Source of the DNA: Armatimonadetes bacterium UBA1398
GTDB lineage: Bacteria; Armatimonadota; Zipacnadia; UBA1398
DNA length: 64,000 nucleotides
Assembly: GCA_002305165.1 (NCBI GenBank)
Contig: DBQI01000026.1
Span: 5,398-69,397, forward strand
Direction: 5' to 3'
Part shown: one piece after another, positions 7,936 through 38,371 of the stretch
Numbering within the stretch: the first letter of the stretch is position 1
Layout: each line of letters opens with the position of its first letter
Position numbers and translations under genes: made by a program
Notes under the pieces: model-generated
Databases searched by the model: none
What the model saw: the letters and a program-made list of their open reading frames with translations, nothing else
What the model was told of the DNA's origin: nothing

Positions 7936-9711
7936 CTAGAAGTACCAGTTCACCGATCCACGAGCCATGGCGCCTACCTGGCTGGCCCCGCCGACACCAG
8001 AGAACTGGGTCAGACCGAGGTCAACGGTGACATCGAAGTCGCCATGGATGCTGATATCGGTACCCGCAATGGCGGTCCAGCGGCTGTTCACGCCATCGGC
8101 CTCGTTGATGAGGCGGAAGCGCCAGTCGCGACTGCCGGAGTGGTAGACGATGTCAGCCCAGGCGGCGTTCTCGCCGTAGACAGCCGGGATCTTGCTGTTC
8201 GTGCGCTGGAACCAGAAGCCCGGCCTGTAGGCGGTGCCGGGGACGCCGCCCATCGCAAACGGCGCCTCATTGTAGCTGAAGAGGTACGGGGTGGTCAGGT
8301 CGGCATTCCTGCCGCTGCGCGCGCTCGGGTTCGCGCCGAGGGGGAGCTGGGCGTAGGACAGACTGATATCCCAGTCCTCGTCGCGCAGAACATCCGCCGC
8401 CACGTACCAGGCCAGGTTGTTGAGGCCGAGGTTGTTCAGCGGGGTGGTCACCTCAGCGCGGATCCCCTCGCCATCCTGGGCATCCCACATGTACTTGACG
8501 TCGACGCCAAGCCGGCCGAACTGCTCGCCGGCGTCGGTGCCGCCGTACCCATCGAGGTCGTTCCAGATCCACGTCACGCCGCCGCCCCAGAGGTCGTCGT
8601 CGGCATCATCAGGATCGTCATAGTTCGCGAGCCTGGCGACGAAGTGGGGACGGGTGTTCATGCCGCCCGCGAAGTAGAACTCGAGCTCATCGAGAGCGGT
8701 GTCGGTAAACTGGGCACGGATGCCATCGGTCGAGCGCGAGTCGTTGTCGAAGGTGAGCCCCTCGGCATAACCGACATACTGACGGCCGATAGTGAGATCC
8801 ACGTCAGCGCCGAAGACCTCAGTGTCATCCACGCGAACCCATGCCTGATCGGGCACAGTGAACGTCTGGTCGACGGGAAGCGCGTTGTCGTTCTCCCACA
8901 GCACGATGCCAACACTGGTCTTGGAGTTGATGCGCTTGTAGAACTCCAGCCAGATGTCGTAGCTGTTGGCAAGCTCGACAGCGTCCACGAGCCCGGCCGC
9001 GTTCGCGCCAGAGGCAACAGCCACGAAGTCGGTGGCGAGCATGCCAGTGATGACGTCCGGCTCCTCCTCGAGGGCCTTCACGCGGGCCTCGAGAGCCGCA
9101 AGGTCATCGGTCAGGTCGCCGAGGCGGCCATCGATCTCGGCCAGCTCGGGCTCGAGCCAATCGCGCAGCTCAGCGATCTTCTGGTTCAGCGTGGCCTCGT
9201 CGATCAAGCCGCGCTCAGCGATCGCGTCATCCACGAGACCGGCAAGACGGTTGGCATCAACGGTGCCAGCAGGGCCAGCGGGACCAGCCGGACCACGGGG
9301 GCCCGGATCGCCGCGCTCACCCTTGGCGCCAGCGGGACCAGCAGGGCCAGCGGGACCGGCAGGGCCAGCGGGACCAGCAGGACCGGCAACGCCATCCTCA
9401 CCGGGGGTGCCAGGGCCCTCGACGCCCACATTGGCATCGACGTACCACAGCAGGCGAGCCAACGCCATCGCGAACTCGTAACGGGTCAGGAAGTTCTTGC
9501 CCTTGAAGGTCCCGTCGGGGTAACCCTCAAGTAGCCCCGCATCGTAAAGCTCGGCGATCGCGTCATATGCCCAGTGATCCCAGGGAACGTCCGGGGGCAC
9601 GGGGCCGCCGGCGACCATGGTGACACCGGTATCCCAGTCAGCGGACGCCGGAATAACGAGGGCCGCAGCTAGAACTGCCGCTACTACAGATACGAACAGC
9701 GTGCGTCTCAT
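7936..9711 (-). CDS. SLH-domain outer-membrane tether/porin (OmpM/SlpA-like): signal peptide, SLH domain, collagen-like GPA repeats, coiled coil, C-terminal beta-barrel
   Basis: 591 aa. Signal peptide ...PASA/DW. SLH motif [42 protein letters not shown]. About 17 Gly-X-Y triplets ([10 protein letters not shown]...[19 protein letters not shown]). A heptad-like region ([43 protein letters not shown]). A ~370-aa C-terminal region with alternating hydrophobic/aromatic residues ends in ...VNWYF, an OMP beta-barrel C-terminal signature. Confidence 0.8.
9265..9420. repeat. Tandem 9-bp repeats (gggaccagc/agggccagc/gggaccggc variants) encoding the collagen-like GPA triplets of the SLH protein
   Basis: Direct inspection shows at least 7 consecutive near-identical 9-mers in frame with the CDS; this is a potential slipped-strand length-variation site. 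Confidence 0.7.
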
Positions 9712-9943
9712 TGTATGTCGCCCTCCTACGAATGAAGAGCTTCCTTTGACCGACGTGAAGCGAAAGCGCCGTAGGAGGAAGACCCCTCAGGAGTAGGTAG
9801 GTCCGGCAACCATTGCACAAGTGTCCACGTTTCCTTGCGCGGTTGCGTCGCCGCCCGCTTCCGTTGGCAGTCTCCCTTTTGGCTACACCGCTCCTCTCCG
9901 CGCAGACTACGCTCACGTCTGAGGAAGCTCACCAACACTAGCA

Positions 9944-9977
9944 CATGCGCCCGAGCGCATGCAAGATTCCTGCATGC
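9944..9977. promoter_or_regulatory. Two overlapping mutually exclusive hairpins (CATGCGC-ccga-GCGCATG and GCATGCA-agattcc-TGCATGC) spanning the annotated start codon of the first URO-D-like gene
   Basis: Read directly from the sequence. The middle arm GCGCATGC is shared by both stems, and the ATG at 9959 lies inside it. Confidence 0.3.
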
Positions 9978-11116
9978 CCTCGAACTTCATACCGTACCGG
10001 AGGCATTCACCGATACGCACCCGAATACCTCCCTCAGGGAGGGAGCCCGTGGTCGATGGGCCCGACTTCAACCAGTACCTAGACGCTATATACCGTACCA
10101 ACGATCCCCATCGCGTACCGGTTGGGGAATTGTTTGTCGAGGACATCATTGCACGCCAGCTATCTGAGGGACCCATCGACTATGACGATCACGGAATGAC
10201 GCTCCGAGGCATGCGGGTGTTCCTCGAGACTCACCGCGTCCTGGGGTTCGATGCAGTGACGGTCGGGGTAGGCCCTGGCTTCGAGCTTCCAGAGTGGGCG
10301 ATGACGACCGATGTCGCGCCCCTCTCCAAGGGCCAACGCGGGTTCGTGACCGGTGGAGCCAGCCGGATCTGGGATAGGGCGTCCTTTGAGGCTTACCCCT
10401 GGCCGAGTCCAGAGCAGGTAGACTACACACCCCTGGAACGGGCTAGTAAGGCTATGCCGGACGGCATGGCCATCCTTGGGTCTGTGGGCGGCCCCTGCGA
10501 GTGGCTCATGTGGATCATGGGCTACGAGGCCTTGAGCCTGGCTCTGGCGGACGATCCGGAACTCGTCAGCGACGTCGTGGACTGCATCGAGCGACAGATG
10601 CTGGCGGTATTCCGCCACGTGGCCGCGATGGAGCGCGTCGGCGCCATGTGGATCTCGGACGACATGGGGTTCCGCACCGGCACCTTCCTATCGCCCGCCC
10701 ATATGCGAGCCTACGTGCTACCCACGCAGAGGCGCCTAGCGGCAGCGGCCCATGCGGAGGGCATCCCCGTGTTGCTGCACTCCTGCGGCAATCTCACCGC
10801 GATCATGGATGATCTGATCGACGATGTGGGCATCGATGCCAAGCACTCCTTCGAGGACGTCATCACGCCGGTTACCGAGGCGAAGAGGCTCTGGGGACAC
10901 CGGGTCTGCCTCATCGGTGGCGTCGATCTCGACCCCCTCACTCGGCTCTCGCCGGAGGAGGTCTACCGCTACACCCTAGGGATCCTGGAAAAGTGCGCTC
11001 CAGGAGGTGGGTACATCCTCGGCACGGGAAACAGTGTAGCGAACTACGTGCCCATCCCCAACTACCTCTCAATGCTCCAGGCTTGGCGCGACTGGCACAT
11101 AACCTCAGCCACGTGA
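9959..11116 (+). CDS. Uroporphyrinogen decarboxylase (URO-D)-like family protein, paralog 1 (MtaA/CmuA-like fold, function unknown)
   Basis: 385 aa. URO-D-family features: a central beta/alpha-barrel region ...MWISDDMGFRTGTFLSPAHMRAYVLP...IPVLLHSCGN...LGTGNSV. The exact start is uncertain; an alternative ATG lies at 9974. Confidence 0.7.
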   Translation: MQDSCMPSNFIPYRRHSPIRTRIPPSGREPVVDGPDFNQYLDAIYRTNDPHRVPVGELFVEDIIARQLSEGPIDYDDHGMTLRGMRVFLETHRVLGFDAVTVGVGPGFELPEWAMTTDVAPLSKGQRGFVTGGASRIWDRASFEAYPWPSPEQVDYTPLERASKAMPDGMAILGSVGGPCEWLMWIMGYEALSLALADDPELVSDVVDCIERQMLAVFRHVAAMERVGAMWISDDMGFRTGTFLSPAHMRAYVLPTQRRLAAAAHAEGIPVLLHSCGNLTAIMDDLIDDVGIDAKHSFEDVITPVTEAKRLWGHRVCLIGGVDLDPLTRLSPEEVYRYTLGILEKCAPGGGYILGTGNSVANYVPIPNYLSMLQAWRDWHITSAT

Positions 11117-11129
11117 AGGGACCGATCCA

Positions 11130-12293
11130 GTGGGGAACACACCCACGCCCGCCGACGGCGTGCATAGCATGGTGCCCAGGGAAGAGATGTCGGAGAGCGC
11201 CCGCAAGCTGCGGGACACCTACGCGCGCACCCCAGGGGCGCCACTCGTGCAGAGAGAGTTCGGGTTCTACTGCCTGGATCGGTGGCGTCGGGAGGGCATG
11301 CCCACCGATGTGCCCCTCCATGAGCTGTTCCAGTACGACCCGCCTGGCAACTACGGGCTCGGTCAGTTGGGATGGTGTGAGGCCGCATTCCTACCCGCGT
11401 TCGAGGTCGAAGTCATCGAGGACCGTGGGGAGCATGAGGTGGTCCGCGACTACGCCGGCCGCCACGTTCTGTACTTCAAGGGACGCCGCGACGGCTTCAT
11501 GCCGGAGTACCTCGAGCACCCCGTGAGGGACGCTCGAACGTGGGAGGAGGACGTCAAGTGGCGGCTCGACCCCTCGAGTGAGGAGCGGTACAGCGATCTG
11601 GGGCCCAGGATGGAGGCCGCGCGAGAGCAGGCGCGTCGCGGTCAGATGATCAGCCAGGGCCTCATCGGGGGATACATGTACCTGCGCAGCCTCATCGGGC
11701 CCGAGCATGTGCTCTACGCGTTCCACGATCAGCCGGCGCTCATCCACGACTGCATGACGACTTGGTTCACGCTGGCCGATGCCGTCATCTCACGGCATCA
11801 GGAGCATGTAACGATCGACGAACTCTTCTTGGCCGAGGACATCTGCTACAACCACGGGCCGCTGATCTCTCCGGCAATGATAGGCGAGTTCCTGGCGCCC
11901 TACTACGAGCAACTCATCGCGAACGTGAAGGCGCGTCAGATCGATCGTGACCGCCACCTCTATCTGCACATCGACACCGACGGCTATGCCCCGCCCGTCA
12001 TGCCGGTGTACAAAACCCTCGGCATGGACGCCATGAGCCCATTCGAGGTCGCCTCAGGCTGTGACGTGGTGGCTGTGGGGCAGGAGCATCCCGATGTGGC
12101 GCTGTTCGGTGGCATGGACAAGCGTGTGCTGGCACAGGGCAAGGCGGCGATAGACGCGATGGTCGAACGGGTCCTCCCTGCGATGCGCGAGCGCGGGGGG
12201 TACATACCAACATGCGACCACGGGGTGCCCGAGGAGGTCCCCTACGAGGACTATCTGTACTACCGAGCGCGCTGCGTGGAACTGGGGAGTTAG
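11130..12293 (+). CDS. Uroporphyrinogen decarboxylase (URO-D)-like family protein, paralog 2
   Basis: 387 aa with the same fold-level signature (...LAEDICYNHGPLISPAMIGEFLAPYYEQL...LHIDTDGYAPP...CDHGVPEEVPYEDYLYYR). It lies 14 nt downstream of paralog 1 and is only distantly related to it. Confidence 0.7.
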   Translation: MGNTPTPADGVHSMVPREEMSESARKLRDTYARTPGAPLVQREFGFYCLDRWRREGMPTDVPLHELFQYDPPGNYGLGQLGWCEAAFLPAFEVEVIEDRGEHEVVRDYAGRHVLYFKGRRDGFMPEYLEHPVRDARTWEEDVKWRLDPSSEERYSDLGPRMEAAREQARRGQMISQGLIGGYMYLRSLIGPEHVLYAFHDQPALIHDCMTTWFTLADAVISRHQEHVTIDELFLAEDICYNHGPLISPAMIGEFLAPYYEQLIANVKARQIDRDRHLYLHIDTDGYAPPVMPVYKTLGMDAMSPFEVASGCDVVAVGQEHPDVALFGGMDKRVLAQGKAAIDAMVERVLPAMRERGGYIPTCDHGVPEEVPYEDYLYYRARCVELGS

Positions 12294-13057
12294 AGCCGCT
12301 CCACCCTCGAGGCTTTCAGGTAGGGCGCGCCGGCCTCGGTGAGGCCAGGGACGGCGGTGACGCGGACACGGGGCGCCGGGCGCTGAGTCGAGTCCAGGCT
12401 ATCAGGCTCCTCGCCACTCACATAGATCCCGCCCGACTCGTCGGCAACGATCCAGTCGCCTCGGTGCCGGCCGGGCGGCCCCTGGGTTACCGGGCCTTGG
12501 AGCCCCTTGGCCCGCCAGCCCCGGTACTCCCCCTCGACCAGGACGGTGCGTGCCTGGAAGAAGCGCGGGAATTCCGCCAGTTGCGTAACAGTTACGACCC
12601 TGGGCACCCAGTCATACCGGAGTTCGACCGTTCCCTCATGCTCGATGAAGCGCGTCTCGATGGGCAGGATCCTGCGCCAGACGCCGTCGGGGAGGTACAT
12701 GACGCCGGACCGGAGGGGCGGAGGGGAGCCCATCTCCAGATCCTCCTCGTTCACGGTCACGGTCGGCTCGCCCAGCCGGAGGGCGATCTTCGTGTCTGGC
12801 AACGTCGCGGACAGGCTGTCCGTGGAGTCATCCCACGAGACGTGGGCGCCCAGTCGCTCCAGGACCAGACGCACGGGGAGAAGCAGAACGTTGTCCTGGT
12901 AGAGTGGGGGAGGCGGCGCCGGTTGGCCCTGTTCGCGGGTGACCTCGATGGTCTCGATGTACAGCCGTAGCGGCGCGTTCTGAGCGTGAGCGCGCTCGGG
13001 CAGCGCCGCCAGAGCGATGCAGAAGCTGGCTCCCAGGATCAGTAACCGGCGGGTCAT
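12290..13057 (-). CDS. Secreted protein with copper-amine-oxidase N-terminal-like (CuAO-N1 stalk) domain
   Basis: 255 aa. It has a signal peptide (MTRRLLILGASFCIALAALPERAHA). It carries a domain of the ...LLLPVRLVLERLGAHVSWDDSTDSLSA... type. Its 3' end overlaps the convergent URO-D paralog 2 by 4 nt. Confidence 0.5.
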   Translation of the reverse strand: MTRRLLILGASFCIALAALPERAHAQNAPLRLYIETIEVTREQGQPAPPPPLYQDNVLLLPVRLVLERLGAHVSWDDSTDSLSATLPDTKIALRLGEPTVTVNEEDLEMGSPPPLRSGVMYLPDGVWRRILPIETRFIEHEGTVELRYDWVPRVVTVTQLAEFPRFFQARTVLVEGEYRGWRAKGLQGPVTQGPPGRHRGDWIVADESGGIYVSGEEPDSLDSTQRPAPRVRVTAVPGLTEAGAPYLKASRVERL

Positions 13058-17006: not shown

Positions 17007-17080
17007 AGGCCTTCGGCGCGCCGGCACGTAAGTAGTAGGTGTGCGCCGGACCCAGCGCGGGTCCGGGAGGGAGGACCACC

Positions 17081-19249
17081 ATGGTACGGTCAATCCTAGG
17101 CATCCGGGCGTTGGCCGCCCTTGTCCTCGTGGCAAGTCTGGTAGTGGCGCCGGCAGCGTTGGCGCAAGGCCTGCCTGAAGTGGCCATCGAGCAGCCTCGC
17201 GATGGCGCCGATGTGGCCACTCTCGGGATTCCGCTGACGGACATCCCATTGACGGTGAGCTACAAGTCATCGGCCGGGGTCGACAAGATCGAGGTCCTGG
17301 TGGATGGGGCGGTGCAGTTCGTGGACCGCTTCAGCGCTCCCGAGACAGAGGGGCGACGGTCCTACCTCTGGGATGCGACGGCTCACGGCCCCGGCAAGCA
17401 CACCATCAGCGTCATCGTGTTCGCCGGCGCACGATCGGCTGGAGCACAGGCGGTGGTCGAGTACAAGGCGGTTCCGTCGCCAGGAGAGGTCCAGCCCAGG
17501 GCGACTCTGGCGGTCGTCAGCCCAAGCCCCGGCGCGGTCGTGTCTGGTCTCGTTCCCCTGCGAGTCGAGACCACGGGGGCGCGGCCGCACTGGGTGCAGT
17601 TTTTCCTGGATGGGCGTGCGGTGGGCCACAGCCTGAGCGAGCCCTACGCGATCTCCATCGACACCTCGCTCTACGCCGACGGTCGACACGTCGTCTACGC
17701 CGCGATGAAGACAGACCGCGGCACCGTCACAAGTGACACGCTCCACGTCAACTTCATGAACCTGGAGATCCCAGAACCACAGGGCGAAGGGGTTGTAGAG
17801 CCACCCGGTGAGGACCCGGGGATCGAGGGGGCTGGCCCCGAGATCGATGTGGCCCCGGTCGAGGAGCCCGTGAAACCGGACCCCGGACCGGCCATCGCCA
17901 TTCCCGCGGCGCCGATCGAGCCCCTCACGCCGCCAGTGCCGTCCCCCGCGGACCCGCTCAACGTGGGTGTGGACCCCCAGGGGCAGCCACCCCTGGAGGT
18001 CGTGGAGCCTGTTGAGCCGGTCGAGGCCGATCCCGGGACTATGACGGACCTACCGCCCGACATCGCCGGCGCCGGGGAGTGGCAGCCCGTCGGTGTGGGC
18101 GAGGAAGGCCCAGCGATGGTGCTTCCTGTGGAGGTCGCGCCGGATGAGCCGCCGCCCGGAGAGCCTGTCGTTGAGCCTCCGACGCCTGTGGACGCCACTA
18201 TGCGGCCGTTGGACACGGAGTTGGCGGGCCCGGATGGGCTCGGCGTCCAGGCTCCGTCGACCCCGCCGGCCGAGCCGAGTGTCCCGCCGGCGCCGGATGT
18301 CACAGCACCGACCGAGGAGCCTGCGGTGCCGCCGCTGGAGCCGGTTGAGCCCGACGTTCCCGTTCTGCCGGAGCCGCAGAGCCCGACCCCGGAGGAGGTC
18401 CCGCCCCCGCTGACACCGCAGCTGGTAGAGATCGACGAGGCTTCAACAGGCTCCGTGAGTCCGCTGCCGCCTCTTGTGCCGTTGCCAAGTCTCACGGGCC
18501 CCGCTGATGCGGCGTTGCCCGACCTGCCTCGGACCGGTCCTGTTGGGCTGCCGTCACCCGAGAAGGCGCCATCCCCAGAGGAGAGTCCGGCGGCACCTCG
18601 GTCCGAGCAGCCGGTGGAGCCGCTGCCTGCAGCGGTCGAGGAACTCGCTGGTCCGGCGGAGGTCGCCGCGCTCGGCGCGTTGCCGGAGCCCAGAACTCCG
18701 GAGGAGATCCCCGTGGTTGAGGCGCCCACTGAGCCAGCGCTTCCCGGTCCTGCCGCGCCGCCGACTGCCGCTGAGGCTGTGGCCGTCGATCCGTTACCGA
18801 GTTCCAGCGACGATCCTGTGCCGGTCATCGGCCATACCCCCCTGCTCACCAGCCCCACGGGCGGCCCCGCCCCGGATGCGGCTACCGAGGAGACGGGTCT
18901 GGTTGTGTGCCTGGACGGTGCGCCGATGGAGGGAGTGCGGCCAGCGATCATCCAGGATGGCGCTGTCTACTTGGCCCTCCGCGACCTGCTCATTGCCGTT
19001 CGCGGCTCCATGACCTGGGATGCCCCGTCGGGACGCATGTCCGGTCGAGCCGGCACTGCCAGCTTCGCCATCACTGCTGGCGGCGACAAGGCAACGCTAC
19101 GTGGTGGGGAGATGGTCCTTGATGCGCCGGCTCTGGTCATAGACGGCACGCTCATGGTGCCCCTCGGCTTCGTGGAGGAACTCTTGGGCCTGCAGTCTGT
19201 CCAGGATCCTGCCGCTGGTACTCTGGAATTCAAGGGCTCTAGCCAGTAG
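17081..19249 (+). CDS. Large secreted protein: signal peptide, two Ig-like (Big) domains, ~380-aa Pro/Glu/Val-rich low-complexity linker, C-terminal CuAO-N1-like domain
   Basis: The start is taken as the ATG at 17081 (MVRSILGIRALAALVLVASLVVAPAALAQG), preceded by GGGAGGGAGG. The C-terminus (...VYLALRDLLIAVRGSMTWDAPSGRMSG...GTLMVPLGFVEELLG) matches the copper amine oxidase N-domain fold used for cell-wall association. Confidence 0.7.
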   Translation: MVRSILGIRALAALVLVASLVVAPAALAQGLPEVAIEQPRDGADVATLGIPLTDIPLTVSYKSSAGVDKIEVLVDGAVQFVDRFSAPETEGRRSYLWDATAHGPGKHTISVIVFAGARSAGAQAVVEYKAVPSPGEVQPRATLAVVSPSPGAVVSGLVPLRVETTGARPHWVQFFLDGRAVGHSLSEPYAISIDTSLYADGRHVVYAAMKTDRGTVTSDTLHVNFMNLEIPEPQGEGVVEPPGEDPGIEGAGPEIDVAPVEEPVKPDPGPAIAIPAAPIEPLTPPVPSPADPLNVGVDPQGQPPLEVVEPVEPVEADPGTMTDLPPDIAGAGEWQPVGVGEEGPAMVLPVEVAPDEPPPGEPVVEPPTPVDATMRPLDTELAGPDGLGVQAPSTPPAEPSVPPAPDVTAPTEEPAVPPLEPVEPDVPVLPEPQSPTPEEVPPPLTPQLVEIDEASTGSVSPLPPLVPLPSLTGPADAALPDLPRTGPVGLPSPEKAPSPEESPAAPRSEQPVEPLPAAVEELAGPAEVAALGALPEPRTPEEIPVVEAPTEPALPGPAAPPTAAEAVAVDPLPSSSDDPVPVIGHTPLLTSPTGGPAPDAATEETGLVVCLDGAPMEGVRPAIIQDGAVYLALRDLLIAVRGSMTWDAPSGRMSGRAGTASFAITAGGDKATLRGGEMVLDAPALVIDGTLMVPLGFVEELLGLQSVQDPAAGTLEFKGSSQ
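17759..18898. repeat. Low-complexity Pro/Glu/Val/Ala-rich coding region (PEPV-type linker); generates a long Gly/Ser-rich antisense shadow ORF
   Basis: The composition is visible in the translation of 17081..19249. Confidence 0.6.
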
Positions 19250-31411: not shown

Positions 31412-31726
31412 ATGCCGAGGGTGCTCGCGGTAACTCTGTTTGCATTGGCCGCCCTAGGTCTGAACCTCTCGGGCTGCGTGTGGGGGTTCGAGGCATACGA
31501 CGGCGGCTACTGGGACGGCAGAGACACGGGTGGCTGGTGGGACGACAACGATGACCACAGCAACTGGTGGTCCCCGTCGAGGCCGCCTTCCTCCGATGAT
31601 GGCAAGGACTCCTACGATCCGTGGGACGGGGACCAGGACACCTGGCAGCCGCCGAATGACGATCCCTTCGATGACGACGGCGGCGGATCCAACGTGCCCC
31701 TCTCTACCGGCGTATCGACCAGCTAA
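31412..31726 (+). CDS. Small acidic Trp/Asp-rich putative lipoprotein
   Basis: 104 aa. Signal peptide with lipobox-like LNLSGC. The mature part is extremely W/D/G-rich (GGWWDDNDDHSNWW...DPWDGDQDTWQPPNDDPFDDDGGG). High GC3 codon usage. RBS GGAGGT 7 nt upstream. Confidence 0.45.
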   Translation: MPRVLAVTLFALAALGLNLSGCVWGFEAYDGGYWDGRDTGGWWDDNDDHSNWWSPSRPPSSDDGKDSYDPWDGDQDTWQPPNDDPFDDDGGGSNVPLSTGVSTS

Positions 31727-33030
31727 GCATCTCTCGCTGCCGCCAGAGCGGCCTCGTAGACCTCCCTCAGGGGAACGCCGCGCTCTGCGGCGATCTGAGC
31801 ACAGTCCTCGTACTCCGGGGTGACCCGGTGTGAACCGTCCGGCAACAGGATCAGCTTGACGCGCAGCGGACCGAACGGTGTGCTTACCGTGCTGGCCTCT
31901 CGCGACAGGCAGAAGCGGGAACACTCGTGGACCCGAACGCCGATGGTCGAGGTCTCGGCCATCAAGATCAGCGCTAGCTCGTGCGCGCGGCTCGGAGGCG
32001 CGATGACGGTGACCGAGGTGCCGGGGCGCCCCTTCTTCATGGTGACAGGCGATAGGTACACGTCCAAGGCGCCAGCATCCATGAGCCTCTGCGCGGCGTA
32101 CGCGAGTACCTCGGGCGTGCAGTCGTCAACCTGGGTGCACACCTCGGTCACCCGAGGAAGGGAGCCCAGCGCATCGACCTCGCCGATGAAGAGCCGCAGG
32201 AGGTTGGGGTAGGGGTCGAAGTCCTTGCTCCCGGCGCCATAGCCGACTCGCTCTACGCGCATCGCCGGCATCGGGCCGATGCTCTGGGCCAGTCCCTTGA
32301 TGATGGCTGCCCCCGTGGGTGTGACGGTCTCCCCTGAGATGTCCACCGCTACCGTCGGCAGCCCCTCCACGAGCTTGGCCACAGCGGGCGGCGGCACGGG
32401 CATAGTGCCATGGGCGCACTGAACCCAGCCATGGGCCAGGGGGATGGGCCCGGCGGACACGCTCTCGACCCCCAGCATTTCCAGCCCGACGGCGACACCG
32501 CAGATGTCAATCAGTGTGTCCACACCGCCCAGCTCATGGAAGTGGACGGCCTCCAGGTCTGCGCCATGGACCGATGCCTCAGCTTCACCGACACAGCGAA
32601 GGATCGCGAGAGAACGCTCTGTAGCTAGGTCAGAGAGACCGGCATCGAGGATCGCCGCGCGGCAGTCGCTGTAGGAGAGCCCATGGTGGTGATGGTGAGC
32701 GGGCTCATGCGGATGATCGTGCGGATGGTGGTGACCGTGGTCGTGACCGTGACCGTGACCGTGATCGTGGCTGTGGTCGTGATGCCCGTGCTCATGATCG
32801 TGGAAGCCATGGGGGGCATGGTCGCTGTGCGCGTCGTCGTCCGCCGTGACGACCACTCCCGTGCCCTCTATACCAGACCGCACGACGCGTTGCGGGGCGA
32901 TACCGATGTGGTGTCGCAGGCCACTGAGCGCTTCTACAAGCGCTACAGGATCGACGCCCAGGTCGATCAGCGCGGCCAGGGTCATGTCACCTGAGATACC
33001 AACGAAGCAGTCAATATGCAGATGCCTCAA
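31723..33030 (-). CDS. larC: Nickel-pincer cofactor biosynthesis protein LarC (nickel insertase, DUF111) with His-rich insert
   Basis: N-terminus MRHLHIDCFVGISGDM... (LarC signature), CTP-binding C-terminal domain, and a 50-aa His/Asp/Gly-rich segment. Confidence 0.85.
   Translation of the reverse strand: MRHLHIDCFVGISGDMTLAALIDLGVDPVALVEALSGLRHHIGIAPQRVVRSGIEGTGVVVTADDDAHSDHAPHGFHDHEHGHHDHSHDHGHGHGHDHGHHHPHDHPHEPAHHHHHGLSYSDCRAAILDAGLSDLATERSLAILRCVGEAEASVHGADLEAVHFHELGGVDTLIDICGVAVGLEMLGVESVSAGPIPLAHGWVQCAHGTMPVPPPAVAKLVEGLPTVAVDISGETVTPTGAAIIKGLAQSIGPMPAMRVERVGYGAGSKDFDPYPNLLRLFIGEVDALGSLPRVTEVCTQVDDCTPEVLAYAAQRLMDAGALDVYLSPVTMKKGRPGTSVTVIAPPSRAHELALILMAETSTIGVRVHECSRFCLSREASTVSTPFGPLRVKLILLPDGSHRVTPEYEDCAQIAAERGVPLREVYEAALAAARDA
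32683..32835. repeat. GTGACC/GTGATC hexanucleotide tandem repeats (antisense of CAC/CAT His codons) encoding the His-rich region of LarC
   Basis: Read directly from the sequence. Confidence 0.6.
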
Positions 33031-33033
33031 CGT

Positions 33034-33804
33034 CTATGAGTCCCCTCGTCCATTCACCAGGCTGGCGAATACTGCGGCGCCAAACCCGTTGTCGATGTTC
33101 ACGACGGCCACGCCACTAGCGCAGGTGTTCAGCATCCCCAGCAACGAGGCTAAGCCACCGAAGGCCGCCCCGTACCCTACGCTCGTCGGCACGGCGACAA
33201 CAGGGCATCCCACCAGCCCGCCGACCACGCTGGGCAAGGCCCCCTCCATGCCAGCCACTACCACCAGGCAACGGGCCGCCATGAGCAGGTCGAGACTGCC
33301 GAGAAGCCGGTGGAGGCCAGCGACGCCCACGTCGTAGAGCCGTTCGACACGGTCGCCGAGGTAGGTGAGCGTCACAGCGGCCTCGTCAGCCACAGGTAGA
33401 TCAGCGGTTCCCGCGCTGACAACGGCGACGTAGCTCCCGTCGTAGTTCGGCTTCCTGACCAGCCGCTCGGGACCGGCTACGAGGATCCGAGCGGAGTCAA
33501 AGTAAACGGTGTCCTGAACGGCTTCGCGCACGACGTCCAGCATCTCCGGCTCAGCACGAGTAGCCAACACGGGTGCGTCGCCCTGCTCATAGAGGCGAGC
33601 CACGATGTCCCTGACCTGAGTTCGGGTCTTCCCGGAGCAGTAGACGACCTCAGGCACACCCGTGCGGACGCCGCGGTGGTGGTCGAGGCGAGCGAACCCC
33701 AGGTCCTCGAAGGGCAGACGCCGCAGCTTCTCCACGGCTTGGTCAACGTCCAGCGTGCCGTTACGCACGGACTCCAGGATCTGACGGGCGGCGTCAGCAG
33801 TCAC
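33034..33804 (-). CDS. larB: LarB (PurE-like pyridinium-3,5-biscarboxylic acid mononucleotide synthase)
   Basis: The PurE-like domain (...GTADLPVADEAAVTL...VVVAGMEGALPSVVGGLVGCPVVAVPTSVGYG...) is preceded by the LarB N-terminal helix ...ILESVRNGTLDVDQAVEKLR. The start is placed at the GTG at 33804; the ORF track extends upstream to 34182, but that would collide with the divergent lipoprotein gene. Confidence 0.7.
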   Translation of the reverse strand: MTADAARQILESVRNGTLDVDQAVEKLRRLPFEDLGFARLDHHRGVRTGVPEVVYCSGKTRTQVRDIVARLYEQGDAPVLATRAEPEMLDVVREAVQDTVYFDSARILVAGPERLVRKPNYDGSYVAVVSAGTADLPVADEAAVTLTYLGDRVERLYDVGVAGLHRLLGSLDLLMAARCLVVVAGMEGALPSVVGGLVGCPVVAVPTSVGYGAAFGGLASLLGMLNTCASGVAVVNIDNGFGAAVFASLVNGRGDS

Positions 33805-33915
33805 GCGGCGGTTCCCTCTCGCTCCGATTGATGTCCTGCGCGCGCGGCAGGGCCAGGCGCTCCTAGAGGGTATCATAGATGGAAGCGGAATCCCCCCAGG
33901 GAAGGGATCACGCCA

Positions 33916-34545
33916 ATGTGCCGTCGCCATCTGACATGCCGCCTGAGCGCAGCTGCCCTCGTAGCCCTCGGTATCTCGCTTGCCGCCGGCTGCTCGCAGT
34001 CCACCGCGCCCACGGCCGGGGCTGGGCCCGTTGAGCCGACCCCCGCCGCCTCCGAGTCGGAGGTCATCCGCGTCGAGCCTATGGTGGCCCTGGGCGAGCC
34101 TGGTCCGGCCAACCTGGTGGTGACACCGACAGACGAGGACTCCTCGGAGTTTGTGATCAAGGAAGAGTCGGGGCAGGTTCATAGTGGGGAAGTGACCGTC
34201 GACAATGACGTCACCGCTGAGGATCTGGACCTGCCTGTCCCAGAGGGCGCGGTCCGGCTCGCAGGCGCTGAGGTCGAGAATCTCGAGTCAACGAATCCGG
34301 TAGTGGATCCGAGCCTTTCGGGCAGCTTAGCTGTTGTGTATGAGAGCAGCAAGCCCGTCGACGAGGTCGTCGCGTTCTACGCGGACCACGAGTCAGGCCG
34401 ATTCACGGAAGTAGAAGCCGATCTCCTGGGCCAGGCAGGCTGGCGTATGCTGTTCGATGGTGAGTCCGATAGGGTCATCGGGGTGACTAAGTCCCCGTCG
34501 GGAATGACCCAGATCACGCTCCTCGATATTCCAGCCGGACCCTGA
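33916..34545 (+). CDS. Hypothetical lipoprotein
   Basis: Lipobox LAAGC; acidic, Pro/Glu-rich mature protein; no recognisable domain. Confidence 0.45.
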   Translation: MCRRHLTCRLSAAALVALGISLAAGCSQSTAPTAGAGPVEPTPAASESEVIRVEPMVALGEPGPANLVVTPTDEDSSEFVIKEESGQVHSGEVTVDNDVTAEDLDLPVPEGAVRLAGAEVENLESTNPVVDPSLSGSLAVVYESSKPVDEVVAFYADHESGRFTEVEADLLGQAGWRMLFDGESDRVIGVTKSPSGMTQITLLDIPAGP

Positions 34546-34583
34546 CGCGCCGGCATGGCGACGGACAGGCGGATGGGGGTTTC

Positions 34584-35501
34584 TTGAGGCTGACTGCCGG
34601 TGTAGTGCTGCTCGTGGTCGCGTTCCCTGCCATTCTGGGGGGAACGGGGTGTCGACGCTCGGCTGGTGCAGGGGTATCATCCGCCGCCCCAAGCCCGACG
34701 CTGGGCACATCCGCCCAGCCTGTACCTGCCGTGACCAGGGGCTCATCGGAGTCTGAGCCCGAATCGGCAATGGCGCCCCCCTCGCACAAACTCGACAAGG
34801 CCCAACTGGACGCCAGGGTGGAGGAGTGGCGGCGGCTTCATCCTGAGGAGGCCGAGGAGGCAGATCGTGAGGACGCGCTGCGCGATGGCGATGGCCCAGA
34901 GGGCGGCGCTGCAGGGTCTGACCTCGGTCTCTTCGGGCCCGGAGGTCCATCCGGGGTTTACAGCATCCTAGGCCTGATAACCGGAGGCAGCGATTCCCAG
35001 ATACATGGCGACGACGAGAGAGGCGTCATCACGACGAGCTACCAGGGTACGACAGTGGACTACACCTACTTCGCGGCGACGGGCGACACGCCTGGGCCGC
35101 GGATGTCGCTGCCGTATGCGTTTCCGGAGCGTACGCGCTTCGCGATAGAGGGGACTATGCCTGAGTCCGTTCTGCGTCGCATTATCGCGGCAGGCGGCGG
35201 GTTGCCTCCCTCGAACATACCCGAGTCACGACGGGCGGTTGTGATTGATGCCGAGGGGGTTTCCCTTCGGGGCTCCCTGGCCGATGTGCGTAGCAGCATC
35301 GAGGAAACCAGTGGTTCCTTCCTGAACCTGGTCCCGCAGGACGAACGGGGCACGCTCGTGTACCAGGACGCGTCAGACCATCGCCATCTCCTGTGGTTGC
35401 AGGATGGGCCCGGTTCCGGGAGGGTCCAGGCAACCCTCGTCACCGTGAGCGCGCTTCCGGAGCCTCTCGAGAAGGCGCTCGCGATCCTGGCCGTTGAGTA
35501 G
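34584..35501 (+). CDS. Hypothetical lipoprotein
   Basis: Lipobox LGGTGC; no recognisable domain. Confidence 0.45.
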   Translation: MRLTAGVVLLVVAFPAILGGTGCRRSAGAGVSSAAPSPTLGTSAQPVPAVTRGSSESEPESAMAPPSHKLDKAQLDARVEEWRRLHPEEAEEADREDALRDGDGPEGGAAGSDLGLFGPGGPSGVYSILGLITGGSDSQIHGDDERGVITTSYQGTTVDYTYFAATGDTPGPRMSLPYAFPERTRFAIEGTMPESVLRRIIAAGGGLPPSNIPESRRAVVIDAEGVSLRGSLADVRSSIEETSGSFLNLVPQDERGTLVYQDASDHRHLLWLQDGPGSGRVQATLVTVSALPEPLEKALAILAVE

Positions 35502-35537
35502 CCGCCCTTCGCCCGAGGCGGCAGCTATGGAGGAGAT

Positions 35538-36377
35538 ATGCCCGCAGCACTCGTTTCGAGCGTCTCAAGCGAGGAACTGGCCCAGTTCTGCCGCGAGTTC
35601 GCAGTGATGCTGGCCTCGGACGTCAAGCTCATGCCTGCTGTTGTGACGCTCAGGCAGCAGACCGAGAACCCGTACTTCCGCGAGGTGCTGCTGGAGGCTC
35701 AGGGTGACCTGGAGAACGGCCAAACGCTTGCGGCGGCCTTCTCGCGGCATCCCGACGTGTTCTCTCCCTTCCTGATCCAGCTCGTGCGGCAGGGCGAACT
35801 TGAGGGTGCGCTGCCCGAGGTGTTCCGCAAGCTCGCGGAGCACTACTCGGGGGGGATGGACAACGAGGCATTCGGCGCCGGCAATCCAGTGGTTGTGAAC
35901 CTCGACATCAGCACCATTGTCGAGGTTCTGCGACCGCTTCTGGTCATGCTGCCCACGGCCCTCGCCTTCGTGGGCTTCGCAATCGCAGGGATCTGGGTGG
36001 CGATGGAGAAGAACTGGCTCCCGAGCGAGCAGGCCGGGCCGACGATCCTAGCCACTGCCGCCCTATCCTTCCTCCTGGTCGGGGCCGCCTTCAGCCGGTT
36101 CCGCCCCCGTCGGGTGTCTACGTGCGCCTTCTGCGGCAAACTGGATACCCAGGTCGACGAGATCGTCACATCCAGGGGGGTCTCTATCTGCAACGAGTGC
36201 GTCGAGACGATGGTGCAGCAGATGCGCCGTAGCAAGGACGTGGTTGCGCCCCCGCCTCCGCCCGCGGCCGCGCCACCGCCGCCGAGCGAGAAGCCCGAGA
36301 GGACTCTGAGACCCGATGTCGCGTATCTGTTGCGCGACCCGGCCGAGCCGGTGGACCTGGATCAGGAGTTCGAGTAA
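35538..36377 (+). CDS. Membrane protein combining a single T2SS-F (GspF/PilC-type) cytoplasmic domain, two TM helices and a C-terminal ClpX-type C4 zinc finger
   Basis: aa 10-95 match the T2SSF repeat (ELAQF...REVLLEAQGDLENGQTLAAAFSRHPDVFSPFLIQLVRQGELEGALPEVFRKLAEHY). Two hydrophobic helices (~aa 125-185). CAFCGKLDTQVDEIVTSRGVSICNECVETMVQQMRR aligns with the ClpX N-terminal zinc-binding domain (CSFCGK...YICDECV...). Pro-rich tail. Confidence 0.65.
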   Translation: MPAALVSSVSSEELAQFCREFAVMLASDVKLMPAVVTLRQQTENPYFREVLLEAQGDLENGQTLAAAFSRHPDVFSPFLIQLVRQGELEGALPEVFRKLAEHYSGGMDNEAFGAGNPVVVNLDISTIVEVLRPLLVMLPTALAFVGFAIAGIWVAMEKNWLPSEQAGPTILATAALSFLLVGAAFSRFRPRRVSTCAFCGKLDTQVDEIVTSRGVSICNECVETMVQQMRRSKDVVAPPPPPAAAPPPPSEKPERTLRPDVAYLLRDPAEPVDLDQEFE

Positions 36378-36389
36378 CGCTTTGAACGC

Positions 36390-38180
36390 TTACTCCTCTT
36401 TGAGAAGTCCGTGGTAGCGGGCCATCCAGTAGGGGAGCAGGTACGCGGCGCCGTCATCCTCGGCGTACCCACCGCCGCCCCGCCTGAGTTGATACGGGTT
36501 CCCGTTCCACTTGAGCATGCCGTTCTCGCTGTACGGCAGCACCGGTATGCCTTCCACGTTGCCTCCGCGGTCAGATGTAGATGAAACTGCCACATCGTGG
36601 CGATCGCTGTTGTCCACGTCGTACTGAATGCGGTCAGTTGGCATCTCGCAAAGCGTACGGACGGCGTCTGAGATCCCTTGGTCGCGACCCAGGGCCAGGC
36701 TGCCGATGAGGTTCCAGAGGGGGTTCCTCTCAGGCCGCTCCTCCGCCATGGTCCGCTCCATACTGAGCCGGTAGACCGCGAGCAGGTCGGGGTCGCGCTC
36801 GTAGAGGAACAGAGGGTAGTAGGCCAGGAACGAGAGTTCGTCGTCGGAGTGGTTCACCTCCGCAGGCATGCGGATCTTCTGGTCGATGGTATTCAGGGCG
36901 AACTGATGGTCACGGCAGAGGCTCTCGTAGGCTTGCTGGTAGCGATCCACGCCGGTCATCGCGTGGGCGACGCGGAGGAAACTGAGCATGCTGAGACTGT
37001 TGAGACCGCGTTCCAGGATCCATTCACTGGTTTCGTTCAACAGATGGGGGGTGAAGACCGCCCAGCGCGTCTGCTCACCATCCGTGTCGATGAGGCGGAA
37101 GTCGTTGTCCAGCAGGTGGTCTGTCACGCGCCGAATCGTGTCACGAATCAGCGCACGCTCAGCCTCATCGGCCACAAGCTCGTAGTAAACGGGAAGCGCG
37201 AAGTAGTGGCCGTTCAGCTCGTCTGAGCTCGTGTCACCCTTCCAGAACCACTTGCCACAGGGACTGGGGTGCCATTCGCCCTCGGAGCGAACGACCTCCG
37301 GCTCATCCACATGGACCACCGCCCGCGCGGGGAAGCCTGGGATACCGGTGACTTGCTCCAGGCGTACCAGAGCCTCCATGGACTCTCTCGCGCGGTCACG
37401 GGCGGCTGACTCCCCGGTACAGGCGTACCGGAAGCACTCCGCCGCCAGATAGATCGCGGTCCAGAGCCCGTCGTTGTCGGACGCGACGTAGGTCCACTCC
37501 GATGTGTCGCCCGGCCGCGTCAGGTTGCAGTCACTCACATAGCCGTGCCGCCGATGGCGCTCATCGATCGCGGCCTCGATGGCTTCCGCCTTGGCCGCCA
37601 GCGTCGTCTCCACGGCCCGTATGCCCCCTACGGACCCGTCGGCACAGAGCACCGCCACGGTGGCCTCATCGATGGCGACCAGGTCGACGACGTCGTCGCT
37701 CGGGAGCCATCGCTGGCCACGGAACAGGCTCCACTGGCCGCCACGGAGGCGAACCAGCCCCCGAGCCGTCGCGAACCAACGATCGCCGTTGGGCGCCAGA
37801 AGGATCCGGCGCACATCGATCGACGGCATGCCGGCATCGGCGCCGAGATGGACCCAGCCCGCGGGCGGAGTGTGCAGGCACACGCCACGGTCGGAGGCGA
37901 TCCAGAGGGTCCCCTGGGCATCCTGCATGACGTCCCTGATCTGGCGGCCGGCCAGGGGGCTATTCGCGTGAGTCAGGAGGGCCACAGCGTTACCAGTCTG
38001 CCGGACCAGAGCCGCGCCGTCCTCGGAGATGCTCCACGCGGTCCCCGCCCGGTCTAGCAGGGGCCAGTCCCTCCGGCTGCAGACGTGGACGCCTGCAAGC
38101 TCATCCGACCTGAGCTTCTCATCCATGGAGAACGCCGGCACCGAGATGCTCGGTAGTTTGGCGCGGGTCGGCCAGATCAT
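36390..38180 (-). CDS. Hypothetical protein: N-terminal beta-propeller-like repeats plus C-terminal alpha-helical (six-hairpin glycosidase-like) domain
   Basis: The start is taken as the ATG at 38180, preceded by AAGGAG 8 nt upstream. Repeats WIASDRGV / WFATARGL resemble two-component-regulator propeller repeats. The C-terminal 350 aa are helical with GH-like aromatic clusters. Confidence 0.5.
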   Translation of the reverse strand: MIWPTRAKLPSISVPAFSMDEKLRSDELAGVHVCSRRDWPLLDRAGTAWSISEDGAALVRQTGNAVALLTHANSPLAGRQIRDVMQDAQGTLWIASDRGVCLHTPPAGWVHLGADAGMPSIDVRRILLAPNGDRWFATARGLVRLRGGQWSLFRGQRWLPSDDVVDLVAIDEATVAVLCADGSVGGIRAVETTLAAKAEAIEAAIDERHRRHGYVSDCNLTRPGDTSEWTYVASDNDGLWTAIYLAAECFRYACTGESAARDRARESMEALVRLEQVTGIPGFPARAVVHVDEPEVVRSEGEWHPSPCGKWFWKGDTSSDELNGHYFALPVYYELVADEAERALIRDTIRRVTDHLLDNDFRLIDTDGEQTRWAVFTPHLLNETSEWILERGLNSLSMLSFLRVAHAMTGVDRYQQAYESLCRDHQFALNTIDQKIRMPAEVNHSDDELSFLAYYPLFLYERDPDLLAVYRLSMERTMAEERPERNPLWNLIGSLALGRDQGISDAVRTLCEMPTDRIQYDVDNSDRHDVAVSSTSDRGGNVEGIPVLPYSENGMLKWNGNPYQLRRGGGGYAEDDGAAYLLPYWMARYHGLLKEE

Positions 38181-38371
38181 GTCATCAGCTCCTTTGGGCT
38201 GAGATCGGTTTCCCTCGGGGCCGTGGGGAGACCTCCGGGACAGCTTCTCTGCGGCGCGATCACGTGATTCGGGCAGAGGAAGGCGTGGGTTGCAGGGGGA
38301 ACCCACGTCTTCATGGTCGAGGCGGGGCGATTCCGCACCTCGGATCCATCCAGGAAAGAGAGCGGTGACAG

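Follow-up and report, generated by a model that had tools for sequence, protein, structure and literature searches.

The 64-kb window of contig DBQI01000026.1 from Armatimonadetes bacterium UBA1398, by which we mean the whole stretch of DNA analysed here, encodes at positions 35538 to 36377 a membrane protein of an Armatimonadota-specific and previously undescribed family. The protein is built from known parts, as it joins a core of the PilC/GspF type, consisting of the cytoplasmic domain Cyto1 and the two transmembrane segments TMS1 and TMS2, to a zinc-binding domain (ZBD) of the ClpX type and an acidic tail; by this core it belongs to the GspF/PilC superfamily. [quoted passage not shown] A more specific reading, in which it is a platform subunit of half size, coupled to PilB, with a ZBD that brings two halves together, is the one that we tentatively favour: it is plausible, but we would not call it probable. 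An initial annotation made from the DNA letters had proposed one T2SSF domain, two transmembrane (TM) helices and a ClpX-type finger, in that order, for this open reading frame (ORF), and Pfam, hydropathy and AlphaFold2 (AF2) models searched with Foldseek bear this out. The gene and the parts of its product are as follows (aa, amino acids; pLDDT, predicted local distance difference test).

35538..36377, + strand: whole half-PilC/ZBD gene, 279 aa plus stop codon, ATG start.
35565..35852, + strand: Cyto1-type T2SSF six-helix bundle, predicted to be cytoplasmic, aa 10-105; from Pfam and from sequence and fold matches in the PDB.
35853..35906, + strand: disordered Gly/Ala-rich linker, aa 106-123; pLDDT <50 for aa 108-122.
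35934..36005, + strand: TMS1, aa ~133-156; from hydropathy, model and alignment with full-length PilC/GspF.
36006..36035, + strand: short loop MEKNWLPSEQ, predicted to be periplasmic, aa 157-166; weakly conserved.
36036..36101, + strand: TMS2, aa 167-188; starts with the nearly invariant G167-P168.
36096..36113, + strand: positive-inside patch RFRPRR, aa 187-192; R-x-[RK]-P is conserved among long forms.
36120..36239, + strand: ClpX-type C4 ZBD, aa 195-234; Cys196, 199, 218 and 221, hairpin 209-218, helix 219-234.
36240..36323, + strand: Pro/Ala-rich low-complexity linker, aa 235-262; PPPPP and PPPP runs, pLDDT 50-55 over aa 241-260.
36324..36374, + strand: conserved acidic C-terminal peptide, aa 263-279, the DVAYLLRDPAEPVDLDQEFE region; ends F-E-COOH.

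The N-terminal domain is recognised by sequence as well as by fold. Pfam finds a single T2SSF stretch (PF00482) at aa 17-103 with an E-value of 8e-18 and 65 bits, the gathering threshold being 25.2, and NCBIfam models align the N-terminal part of the protein to GspF 58-154 and Myxococcus PilC 75-169, which is Cyto1. Sequence matches for Cyto1 in the PDB were PilC (3jc8/2whn) and EpsF (2vmb), with Myxococcus PilC scoring 47.6 bits over its Cyto1 versus 24.8 bits over its Cyto2. A first AF2 model from a ten-sequence alignment was confident for Cyto1 only, and a second from an alignment of 24 family sequences reached a mean pLDDT of 81, where aa 11-100 score >94, the TM hairpin 83-89, the finger 80-89 and the last 19 residues ~70. 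Compared with the PDB by Foldseek, Cyto1 superimposed on EpsF, OutF and PilC Cyto1 at 1.0-1.1 A root-mean-square deviation (rmsd) over 97-102 columns (probability 1.0). At ~35% identity to Thermus and Myxococcus PilC (rmsd ~1.0 A), the domain retains the residues G61, P72, F75, G86 and E87, which are invariant in PilC/GspF. A separate observation concerns Cys18 (window 35589-35591) in the first Cyto1 helix, which lies within F-C-R-[QE]-F and hardly varies across the three forms that the family takes (described below), the finger-less ones included; the position is Thr, Ser or Ala in the canonical PilC/GspF compared.

The order of parts in GspF/PilC is N-domain, Cyto1, TMS1, short loop, TMS2, Cyto2 and TMS3 (PMC10790770). 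Hydropathy places two TM helices in the window protein at aa ~133-156 and ~167-188 with a 10-residue loop between them (helices 124-157 and 163-187 in the AF2 model), and in an alignment the TMS1-loop-TMS2 hairpin is in register with full-length GspF/PilC. In the relative P0029, the T2SSF match runs on through TMS1 and covers 1-121 of 125 profile positions. This alignment and this match show that the family corresponds to the Cyto1-TMS1-loop-TMS2 half of PilC, with the ZBD and the tail in place of Cyto2-TMS3. The likeness to PilC/GspF thus comprises Cyto1, the hairpin with its predicted N-in topology, the invariant G/P/F/GE residues and relatives that are paired with pilB. The window protein differs in that it has one T2SSF repeat, lacks the beta-beta-alpha-beta N-domain, Cyto2 and TMS3, and carries a 20-residue disordered linker between Cyto1 and TMS1, and the full-length PilC/GspF hidden Markov model (HMM) covers it at positions 59-157 of 406 only. 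Because RFRPRR with its four Arg follows TM2 and the protein has no signal peptide, an N-in/C-in topology is predicted, in which the finger is cytoplasmic and not periplasmic.

The C-terminal finger is equally well defined. Pfam zf-C4_ClpX (PF06689) matches aa 195-225 with an E-value of 3.3e-9 and 36.9 bits (gathering threshold 27), so that both profile checks proposed in the initial annotation gave scores above threshold, and NCBIfam aligns the finger to ClpX residues 5-48. Sequence matches for the finger in the PDB were ClpX ZBDs, and Foldseek pairs it with the E. coli ClpX ZBD structures 2DS5/6/7/8 at an rmsd of 0.8-1.3 A over 37-41 columns (TM-score 0.79-0.85, probability 1.00, 32-38% identity); structure prediction, the other check that had been proposed, therefore places both Cyto1 and the ZBD on PDB folds at ~1 A. 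With the ClpX ZBD (PF06689; PDB 1OVX, 2DS5-2DS8) the finger shares the C4 treble-clef-like fold, and its four cysteines (C196, C199, C218 and C221) stand in the same frame as in E. coli ClpX: a CxFCGK start, an 18-residue spacer and an IC(N/D)EC end. The surroundings are different, as the window ZBD follows the TM hairpin by ~7 residues and is itself followed by the low-complexity linker and the acidic tail, and there is no AAA+ module. No AAA domain was matched in the window protein, and the ClpX equivalogs gave 26 bits versus cut-offs of 359-371. The Pro-rich stretch that had been noticed after the finger is present and reads APPPPPAAAPPPPS.

Known families do not accommodate this combination. 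The ten NCBIfam matches up to E = 1 were GspF, PilC, HofC, XpsF, ComGB, ClpX and two unrelated families with weak matches; none of the ten was a TadB/TadC model, and the scores of 64.3, 61.9 and 60.7 bits compare with equivalog cut-offs of 424 for GspF (TIGR02120) and 700 for PilC (NF052606/NF052607). The protein is therefore neither a PilC/GspF nor a TadB/C nor a ClpX as these are defined. The initial annotation had not recognised a described family; none covering T2SSF plus the ClpX finger was found in Pfam, NCBIfam or PADLOC, and full-text literature searches turned up no paper that combines T2SSF with a ClpX finger or reports a half-size PilC in Armatimonadota. Its remark that T2SSF domains normally occur in duplicate stands in so far as the window protein has only one, but a single domain is not unprecedented: TadB/TadC are single-T2SSF platform subunits which arose from gene fission, and which indicate that half-size subunits can build a working platform (PMC6668835). 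One T2SSF domain per polypeptide is what the window protein shares with TadB/TadC and with archaeal Epd. TadB and TadC, however, are a tandem pair of unlike halves in tad/cpa loci with CpaF and belong to an archaeal-derived branch, whereas the window protein comes from the PilC/GspF branch, is a half of the Cyto1 type that stands alone, with no partner half found within 10 kb, and bears a ZBD; no tad genes were found among the neighbours of the window gene or of the family loci. A more distant likeness is that to SpoIIIAB of the Bacillus SpoIIIA-SpoIIQ channel (PDB 6BS9), also a small membrane protein with a single GspF-Cyto-like domain (Foldseek probability 0.96). SpoIIIAB works with the GspE-like ATPase SpoIIIAA. 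This match has an rmsd of 3.8 A and 12% identity, and SpoIIIAB has another TM arrangement, no zinc finger and a place in another phylum and process.

Selection acts on all structured modules. With L008, the closest relative with DNA (78% aa identity), as reference, the ratio of nonsynonymous to synonymous substitution rates (dN/dS) is 0.11 for the whole gene, 0.08 for Cyto1, ~0 for TM1, 0.01 for TM2, 0.10 for the ZBD and 0.04 for the last 17 residues, which form the tail. The TM helices are thus the most constrained part of the protein. The first linker (aa 106-125), with a mean pairwise identity of 18%, gives 0.22 and the periplasmic loop 0.47, while for the Pro-rich linker the ratio is not calculable due to saturated synonymous sites; its dN of 0.52 is the highest and makes it the fastest-evolving segment. 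Judged by these ratios, the structured modules are all functional and under purifying selection. A pseudogene or truncated pilC was rejected on the grounds that dN/dS is 0.01-0.10 on all modules and that the gene is conserved over ~70 distinct loci.

The window protein, which is 100% identical to the entry P0001 of a public protein collection, is not the isolated chimera that it first appeared to be, but belongs to a family that extends across Armatimonadota and has three forms; the ZBD is common in this family and probably ancestral. An exhaustive profile search of 1.84 billion representative proteins returned ~20 clusters (50% identity) of relatives of 135-298 aa, most of which score 156-484 bits, while canonical GspF/PilC of ~400 aa score <=142 bits; the clusters P0127 and P0132, at ~123 bits, lie among the latter. 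Just below the family ranks P0037 (454 aa), an oddity in which four T2SSF-Cyto-like stretches follow one another and no TM segment is obvious; it may be a soluble multi-Cyto protein. With a metagenome scan included, 70 distinct family loci were gathered. Every member with known taxonomy is from Armatimonadota, the sole named cluster member likewise; among the GTDB species genomes, family matches are confined to Armatimonadota (Armatimonadia and 'Ca. Zipacnadia'), where 15 genomes have one locus apiece.

The full form consists of the core with ZBD, linker and acidic tail; a second form lacks the ZBD but keeps the tail (P0007-9, P0020, L010); and a third, short form of ~190 aa stops a few basic residues past TM2. 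In most full-length members the finger sits at the same site, directly after R-x-[RK]-P-x-x-V. A deeper branch (P0187-P0207, ~25% identity) has the same architecture with a long low-complexity linker, a finger just below the Pfam cut-off (13-24.5 bits) and the C-termini EEDFE, EEEYE and KRFEL. Matches of 270-460 aa with 'T2SSF only' were considered as sister architectures and rejected, as they are this divergent branch with its sub-threshold finger. Since the finger occupies the same position in both deep branches, the ZBD is most simply read as ancestral and lost at least twice. The short forms keep the conserved core without ZBD and tail.

The coupling to PilB is suggested by gene neighbourhoods. 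Of the short-form loci, 22 are informative in that they include >=1.5 kb upstream, and in 7 of these (L012, L013, L079, L081, L090, L092 and L095) the family gene has pilB (MshEN+T2SSE) as its divergent neighbour. In L012 and L013 at least two, and probably three, PilT-like genes lie beside pilB, and in L090 and L092 pilB and the half-PilC gene are the sole pilus genes in the flanks examined. In canonical pilC loci of other phyla (L023-L038), pilC mostly has pilB upstream, and pilT usually stands between the two. Between the PilT-like genes and pilB, L012 (5752-7137) and L013 (6021-7313) also encode a 430-461 aa membrane protein (c15) with a Cys-rich centre, CWQLPYCHDSLLAVCPAYEARRSCWRLNRGCNC, for which no Pfam match and no T2SSF similarity were found. 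A small cytoplasmic TPR protein of ~160-190 aa is encoded directly upstream of most short forms (for example L012 9480-9965, L016 9438-9926 and L004 2243-2728), and this gene was never found upstream of ZBD-bearing forms among the collected loci. The complementary distribution suggests that the TPR partner and the ZBD-plus-tail are functionally interchangeable, and fits a shared pairing or recruiting role.

A second half of the platform was looked for with the full-length PilC/GspF HMM in six-frame ORFs of the window and 29 Armatimonadota loci, and in these 30 sources neither a full-length pilC nor a separate Cyto2-TMS3 gene was found within 10 kb. Gene fission with a nearby second half, or a nearby full pilC, was accordingly rejected: the HMM matched the Cyto1 of the family gene only. 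The metagenome PilC nearest the family (L100 and similar, 43-47% Cyto1 identity) do not represent an Armatimonadota PilC either, as these genes belong to Solirubrobacteraceae (Actinomycetota).

The retained invariant residues of Cyto1 and the repeated pairing with pilB are the reasons for ranking the platform reading first. The proposed protein would be an inner-membrane protein with both ends in the cytoplasm, and its Cyto1 would dock onto a hexameric ATPase of the PilB type, at the N2 domain, in the way that each GspF Cyto domain has been modelled onto one N2 domain of such a hexamer (PMC10790770). The ZBD, which lies ~7 residues from the membrane where Cyto2 would begin, would pair two half-subunits so that each dimer mimics one two-repeat PilC protomer, and three ZBD dimers would then serve six Cyto1 domains under one ATPase hexamer. 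ZBDs take the same 6-into-3 arrangement in the ClpX ring, with three dimers per ring, and Donaldson and colleagues are said to have described the ClpX ZBD in 2003 as a constitutive dimer. The acidic tail with its phi-x-phi patch (phi, a hydrophobic residue) may be a docking peptide for a further partner, be it a ZBD or another protein. In short forms without ZBD and tail, the co-operonic TPR protein might supply the pairing or recruiting, and in the clade of the window two lipoproteins would be added on the periplasmic side.

Several points weigh against this proposal. No pilB, pilT or other pilus gene adjoins any long (ZBD-bearing) form, the window gene included, and no pilus, secretion or Clp gene was found within the 64-kb window. 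Adjacency to pilB is seen in about one third of the informative short-form loci and may descend from few lineages. The Y-P of TMS1 and E-P of TMS3 are reported as conserved in all GspF/PilC, where they line an ion channel (PMC10790770), but these polar-plus-proline pairs are not kept in the family: the window protein has R132-P133, other members have R/K/W/T-P, the short forms have Q-W, R-W or R-Y at the 'Y-P' position, and TMS3 is missing throughout. ZBD dimerisation, ATPase binding and tail docking are all steps that we infer. Finally, cultured Armatimonadetes have been found to possess systems of the T2SS type (PMC6668835); these require a canonical platform, so that this part does not have to fall to the family.

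The last point, together with the lost channel signature, which argues against a working platform channel, favours a different role on the same homology and pilB-adjacency evidence. Here, the single Cyto1 would act as a regulator or decoy of the motor, competing or co-assembling with canonical PilC for the N2 domain of PilB/PilT, while the ZBD-tail or TPR part takes an input that gates pilus extension or retraction. The partner modules differ by clade (ZBD plus tail, TPR or lipoproteins), as is typical of regulatory add-ons. We nevertheless regard this role as improbable, since no canonical pilC stands beside pilB in any family locus screened, the TM helices are constrained to a degree that is unexpected for a simple anchor, and a single family match in each genome, phylum-wide, is rather what a core component would show. 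The initial annotation had raised a secretion-platform regulatory module, and this idea has gained real support from pilB at the short-form relatives and none at the long forms.

The tail and the finger raise the question of a link to ClpXP. The tail motif Y-L-x-R-[DE]-P-x-x-P-[VI]-[DN]-L-D is kept even in the ZBD-less P0007-9, P0020 and L010. Across the family the tails diverge, yet they share a short hydrophobic phi-x-phi patch within the acidic C-terminus, with ERIKILPKPEDEE, ERIQIIRSEED, FQIVREEED, FEIIKGEED, KVVEL, KRIEL, KRFEL and EEDFE as examples. A strict core phi-x-[ILV]-[ILV]-[RK], which resembles the XB motif of the adaptor SspB (reportedly LRVVK, from work ascribed to Park and colleagues in 2007), occurs in 7 of 41 non-redundant tails versus a shuffle mean of 0.5, although this motif was chosen post hoc, after the tails had been seen, and 4 of the 7 occurrences come from the clade of the window. 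The window C-terminus itself has AYLLR plus PVDLDQEFE. The post hoc choice and the clustering in one clade make the XB-like motif only a lead. No SspB substrate-binding domain was found in the window protein by Pfam or NCBIfam.

If this lead were followed, the protein could be a membrane module linked to ClpXP, either with the ZBD as a decoy or anti-adaptor for ClpX-docking peptides, or with a tail that docks the ClpX ZBD like SspB XB and thereby tethers ClpXP to degrade or remodel a Cyto1 cargo such as a pilus ATPase. The finger is close to the ClpX ZBD in sequence and fold, the ZBD-XB complex 2DS8 included, and the ZBD of ClpX is dimeric and binds short peptides at nM affinity whatever their position in the chain (PMC12373786). 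The tail is strongly constrained and retained in relatives without a ZBD of their own, which fits a trans partner such as ClpX, and the tail cores AYLLR, IQIIR, FQIVR and FEIIK resemble the SspB motif. The initial annotation had raised adaptor recruitment or ClpX mimicry at the membrane. We consider such a ClpXP link unlikely for the following reasons: it gains no genomic support, as no clpX, clpP, sspB or other protease gene neighbours any of the 70 loci or lies in the window, the motif carries the limits given above, and the conserved core of the short forms implies a core function that needs no ClpX link. Furthermore, the domain is not diagnostic of Clp function, as cyanobacterial sigma-70 factors carry a terminal zf-C4_ClpX as an accessory domain (PMC11119718). 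These factors resemble the window protein in that a ClpX-type finger is fused to a non-Clp protein, but the host there is an unrelated soluble sigma factor. The suggestion of an anti-sigma-like module in the initial annotation did not hold, as no sigma gene flanks the gene in the window and no anti-sigma family match or motif was found. A membrane anti-sigma factor was rejected on these grounds, and the cysteines are CxxC...CxxC of the ClpX type and not the ZAS motif HxxxCxxC; an ECF sigma gene lies ~4.5 kb downstream of the family gene in L003 and L006 only.

The neighbours of the long forms point in yet another direction. Of 22 informative loci, ~15 have efp immediately upstream; they represent at least five clades and reach down to the 27%-identical branch (L043-45, L047, L049 and L055-71, gaps typically <~40 bp; coordinates L043 9416-9985, L045 8928-9491, L047 6405-6971 and L049 9339-9926). 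Downstream of long forms, dnaE is found in six loci (L043, L045, L047, L066, L067 and L069) and rsmH, directly, in L050, L052 and L053. After short forms, mraZ-rsmH, the start of the dcw cluster, follows within ~0.7 kb in L012, L013, L095 and L097 and at ~3 kb in L080 and L083 (L012 coordinates 11210-12642), while ftsK is downstream in L001 and ileS-lspA-lgt-ddl in L004. Alongside efp and pilB, mraZ-rsmH at short forms and rsmH at long forms make up another recurring neighbourhood of the family. In L045, a 148-aa ORF (9538-9984) with a weak C-terminal zinc ribbon (CSL/Trm112-like, sub-threshold) lies between efp and the family gene in this one lineage. A further side observation is that polyproline runs are the classic motif for EF-P-dependent stalling, and that the window protein has PPPPP and PPPP runs (36240-36323) yet is not beside efp, while most efp-linked relatives are without such runs.

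These genes could mean that the family is a housekeeping membrane scaffold unrelated to pili or ClpX, in which a PilC-derived domain and a zinc ribbon were re-used in an envelope, division or translation-linked process and the pilB adjacency is inherited synteny. The recurrent efp and the dnaE, rsmH, mraZ-rsmH, ftsK and ileS-lspA-lgt-ddl neighbours would agree with such a role. The neighbours are, however, without a common function, and the tight efp spacing may be merely an old operon. The PilC/GspF-invariant Cyto1 residues are kept, which argues that the ancestral interaction was retained, and the pairing with pilB survives as a bare two-gene unit in L090 and L092, so that we see the scaffold as distinctly unlikely.

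In the window, the half-PilC/ZBD gene is the last of a tightly spaced three-gene unit specific to its clade, with 39 bp between lipoprotein A and B and 37 bp between lipoprotein B and the half-PilC gene. The remaining features of this unit are listed here.

33916..34545, + strand: lipoprotein A gene, 209 aa; its signal peptide ends ...SLAAGC; opens the three-gene module that is specific to the clade.
34584..35501, + strand: lipoprotein B gene, 305 aa; TTG start; signal peptide ending ...LGGTGC; second of the module.
35529..35535, + strand: Shine-Dalgarno-like GGAGGAG, 2 nt between its end and the ATG; read from the sequence.

The two upstream lipoprotein genes noticed in the initial annotation are thus ORFs with signal peptides ending in Cys, and they are conserved neighbours in the clade of the window only (window, L002, L003, L006, L007 and L010); elsewhere an efp or TPR gene lies upstream. 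Both lipoproteins precede the family gene in L002, L003, L007 and L010, and in L006/L008 lipoprotein B is directly upstream before the contig ends. Neither lipoprotein has a match in Pfam, NCBIfam or PADLOC. A role in anti-phage defence was rejected, as PADLOC matched neither the half-PilC gene nor the lipoproteins nor the genes on either side. Scanned for promoters and terminators, positions 33500-36700 gave results at chance level only.

On one side the unit diverges from larB, and on the other it converges with a gene for a 638-aa protein. The mechanical LarB ORF (window 33034-34182, - strand; 382 aa) runs into the lipoprotein A gene. The AIRC domain takes up aa 252-376 of this ORF only and LarB is 255-256 aa long in L002/L003, and therefore larB probably starts far downstream of the first start codon of the ORF, which would leave a divergent intergenic region ahead of lipoprotein A. 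The convergent 638-aa neighbour (36390-38306, - strand) has one marginal Reg_prop (two-component regulator propeller) repeat and a faint PorZ-like match, and is not conserved beside the family gene elsewhere. The rest of the window is ordinary chromosome, with Trk, MetRS, TrpRS, ScpAB, a PBP5-type carboxypeptidase, LarB/LarC, the Nuo operon, PRPP synthetase, L25, SmpB and Pst/PhoU. LarC, the nickel insertion protein (31723-33030, - strand), contains a long insertion rich in His, HDHEHGHHDHSHDHGHGHGHDHGHHHPHDHPHEPAHHHHH, which is presumably a loop for storing or delivering metal. A 591-aa protein (7936-9711, - strand) carries both an S-layer homology (SLH) domain and collagen-like triple-helix repeats, and Cu_amine_oxidN1 'stalk' domains occur in two more window proteins (12290-13057 and 17039-19249).

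The platform reading can be extended to a bolder model, which we offer as a long shot: the Armatimonadota pilus platform would be a homo-oligomer of half-PilC in which six Cyto1-TMS1-TMS2 units sit under the PilB hexamer, paired by ZBD dimers (or TPR) into three pseudo-PilC protomers, with ZBD and tail doubling as a peptide switch that also engages ClpX-type adaptor tails. If true, the platform protein would be 'un-duplicated' by nature, and a ClpX ZBD would for the first time be seen to serve as an assembly device outside Clp proteases. Whether PilC/GspF is a dimer or trimer, whether it forms an ion channel and in what way the hexameric ATPase is coupled to it are matters of debate (PMC10790770), and a half-sized subunit with a separable, lineage-variable pairing device would be a simple system to test the number of Cyto domains and the role of the second repeat. 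The ClpX ZBD, usually regarded as the hallmark of one protease, is here re-used on a membrane protein phylum-wide, which widens the known roles of this domain and may offer a route for proteolysis adaptors and the pilus machinery to communicate. For Armatimonadota genomes, the family gives an annotation to a gene which is now labelled 'hypothetical'.

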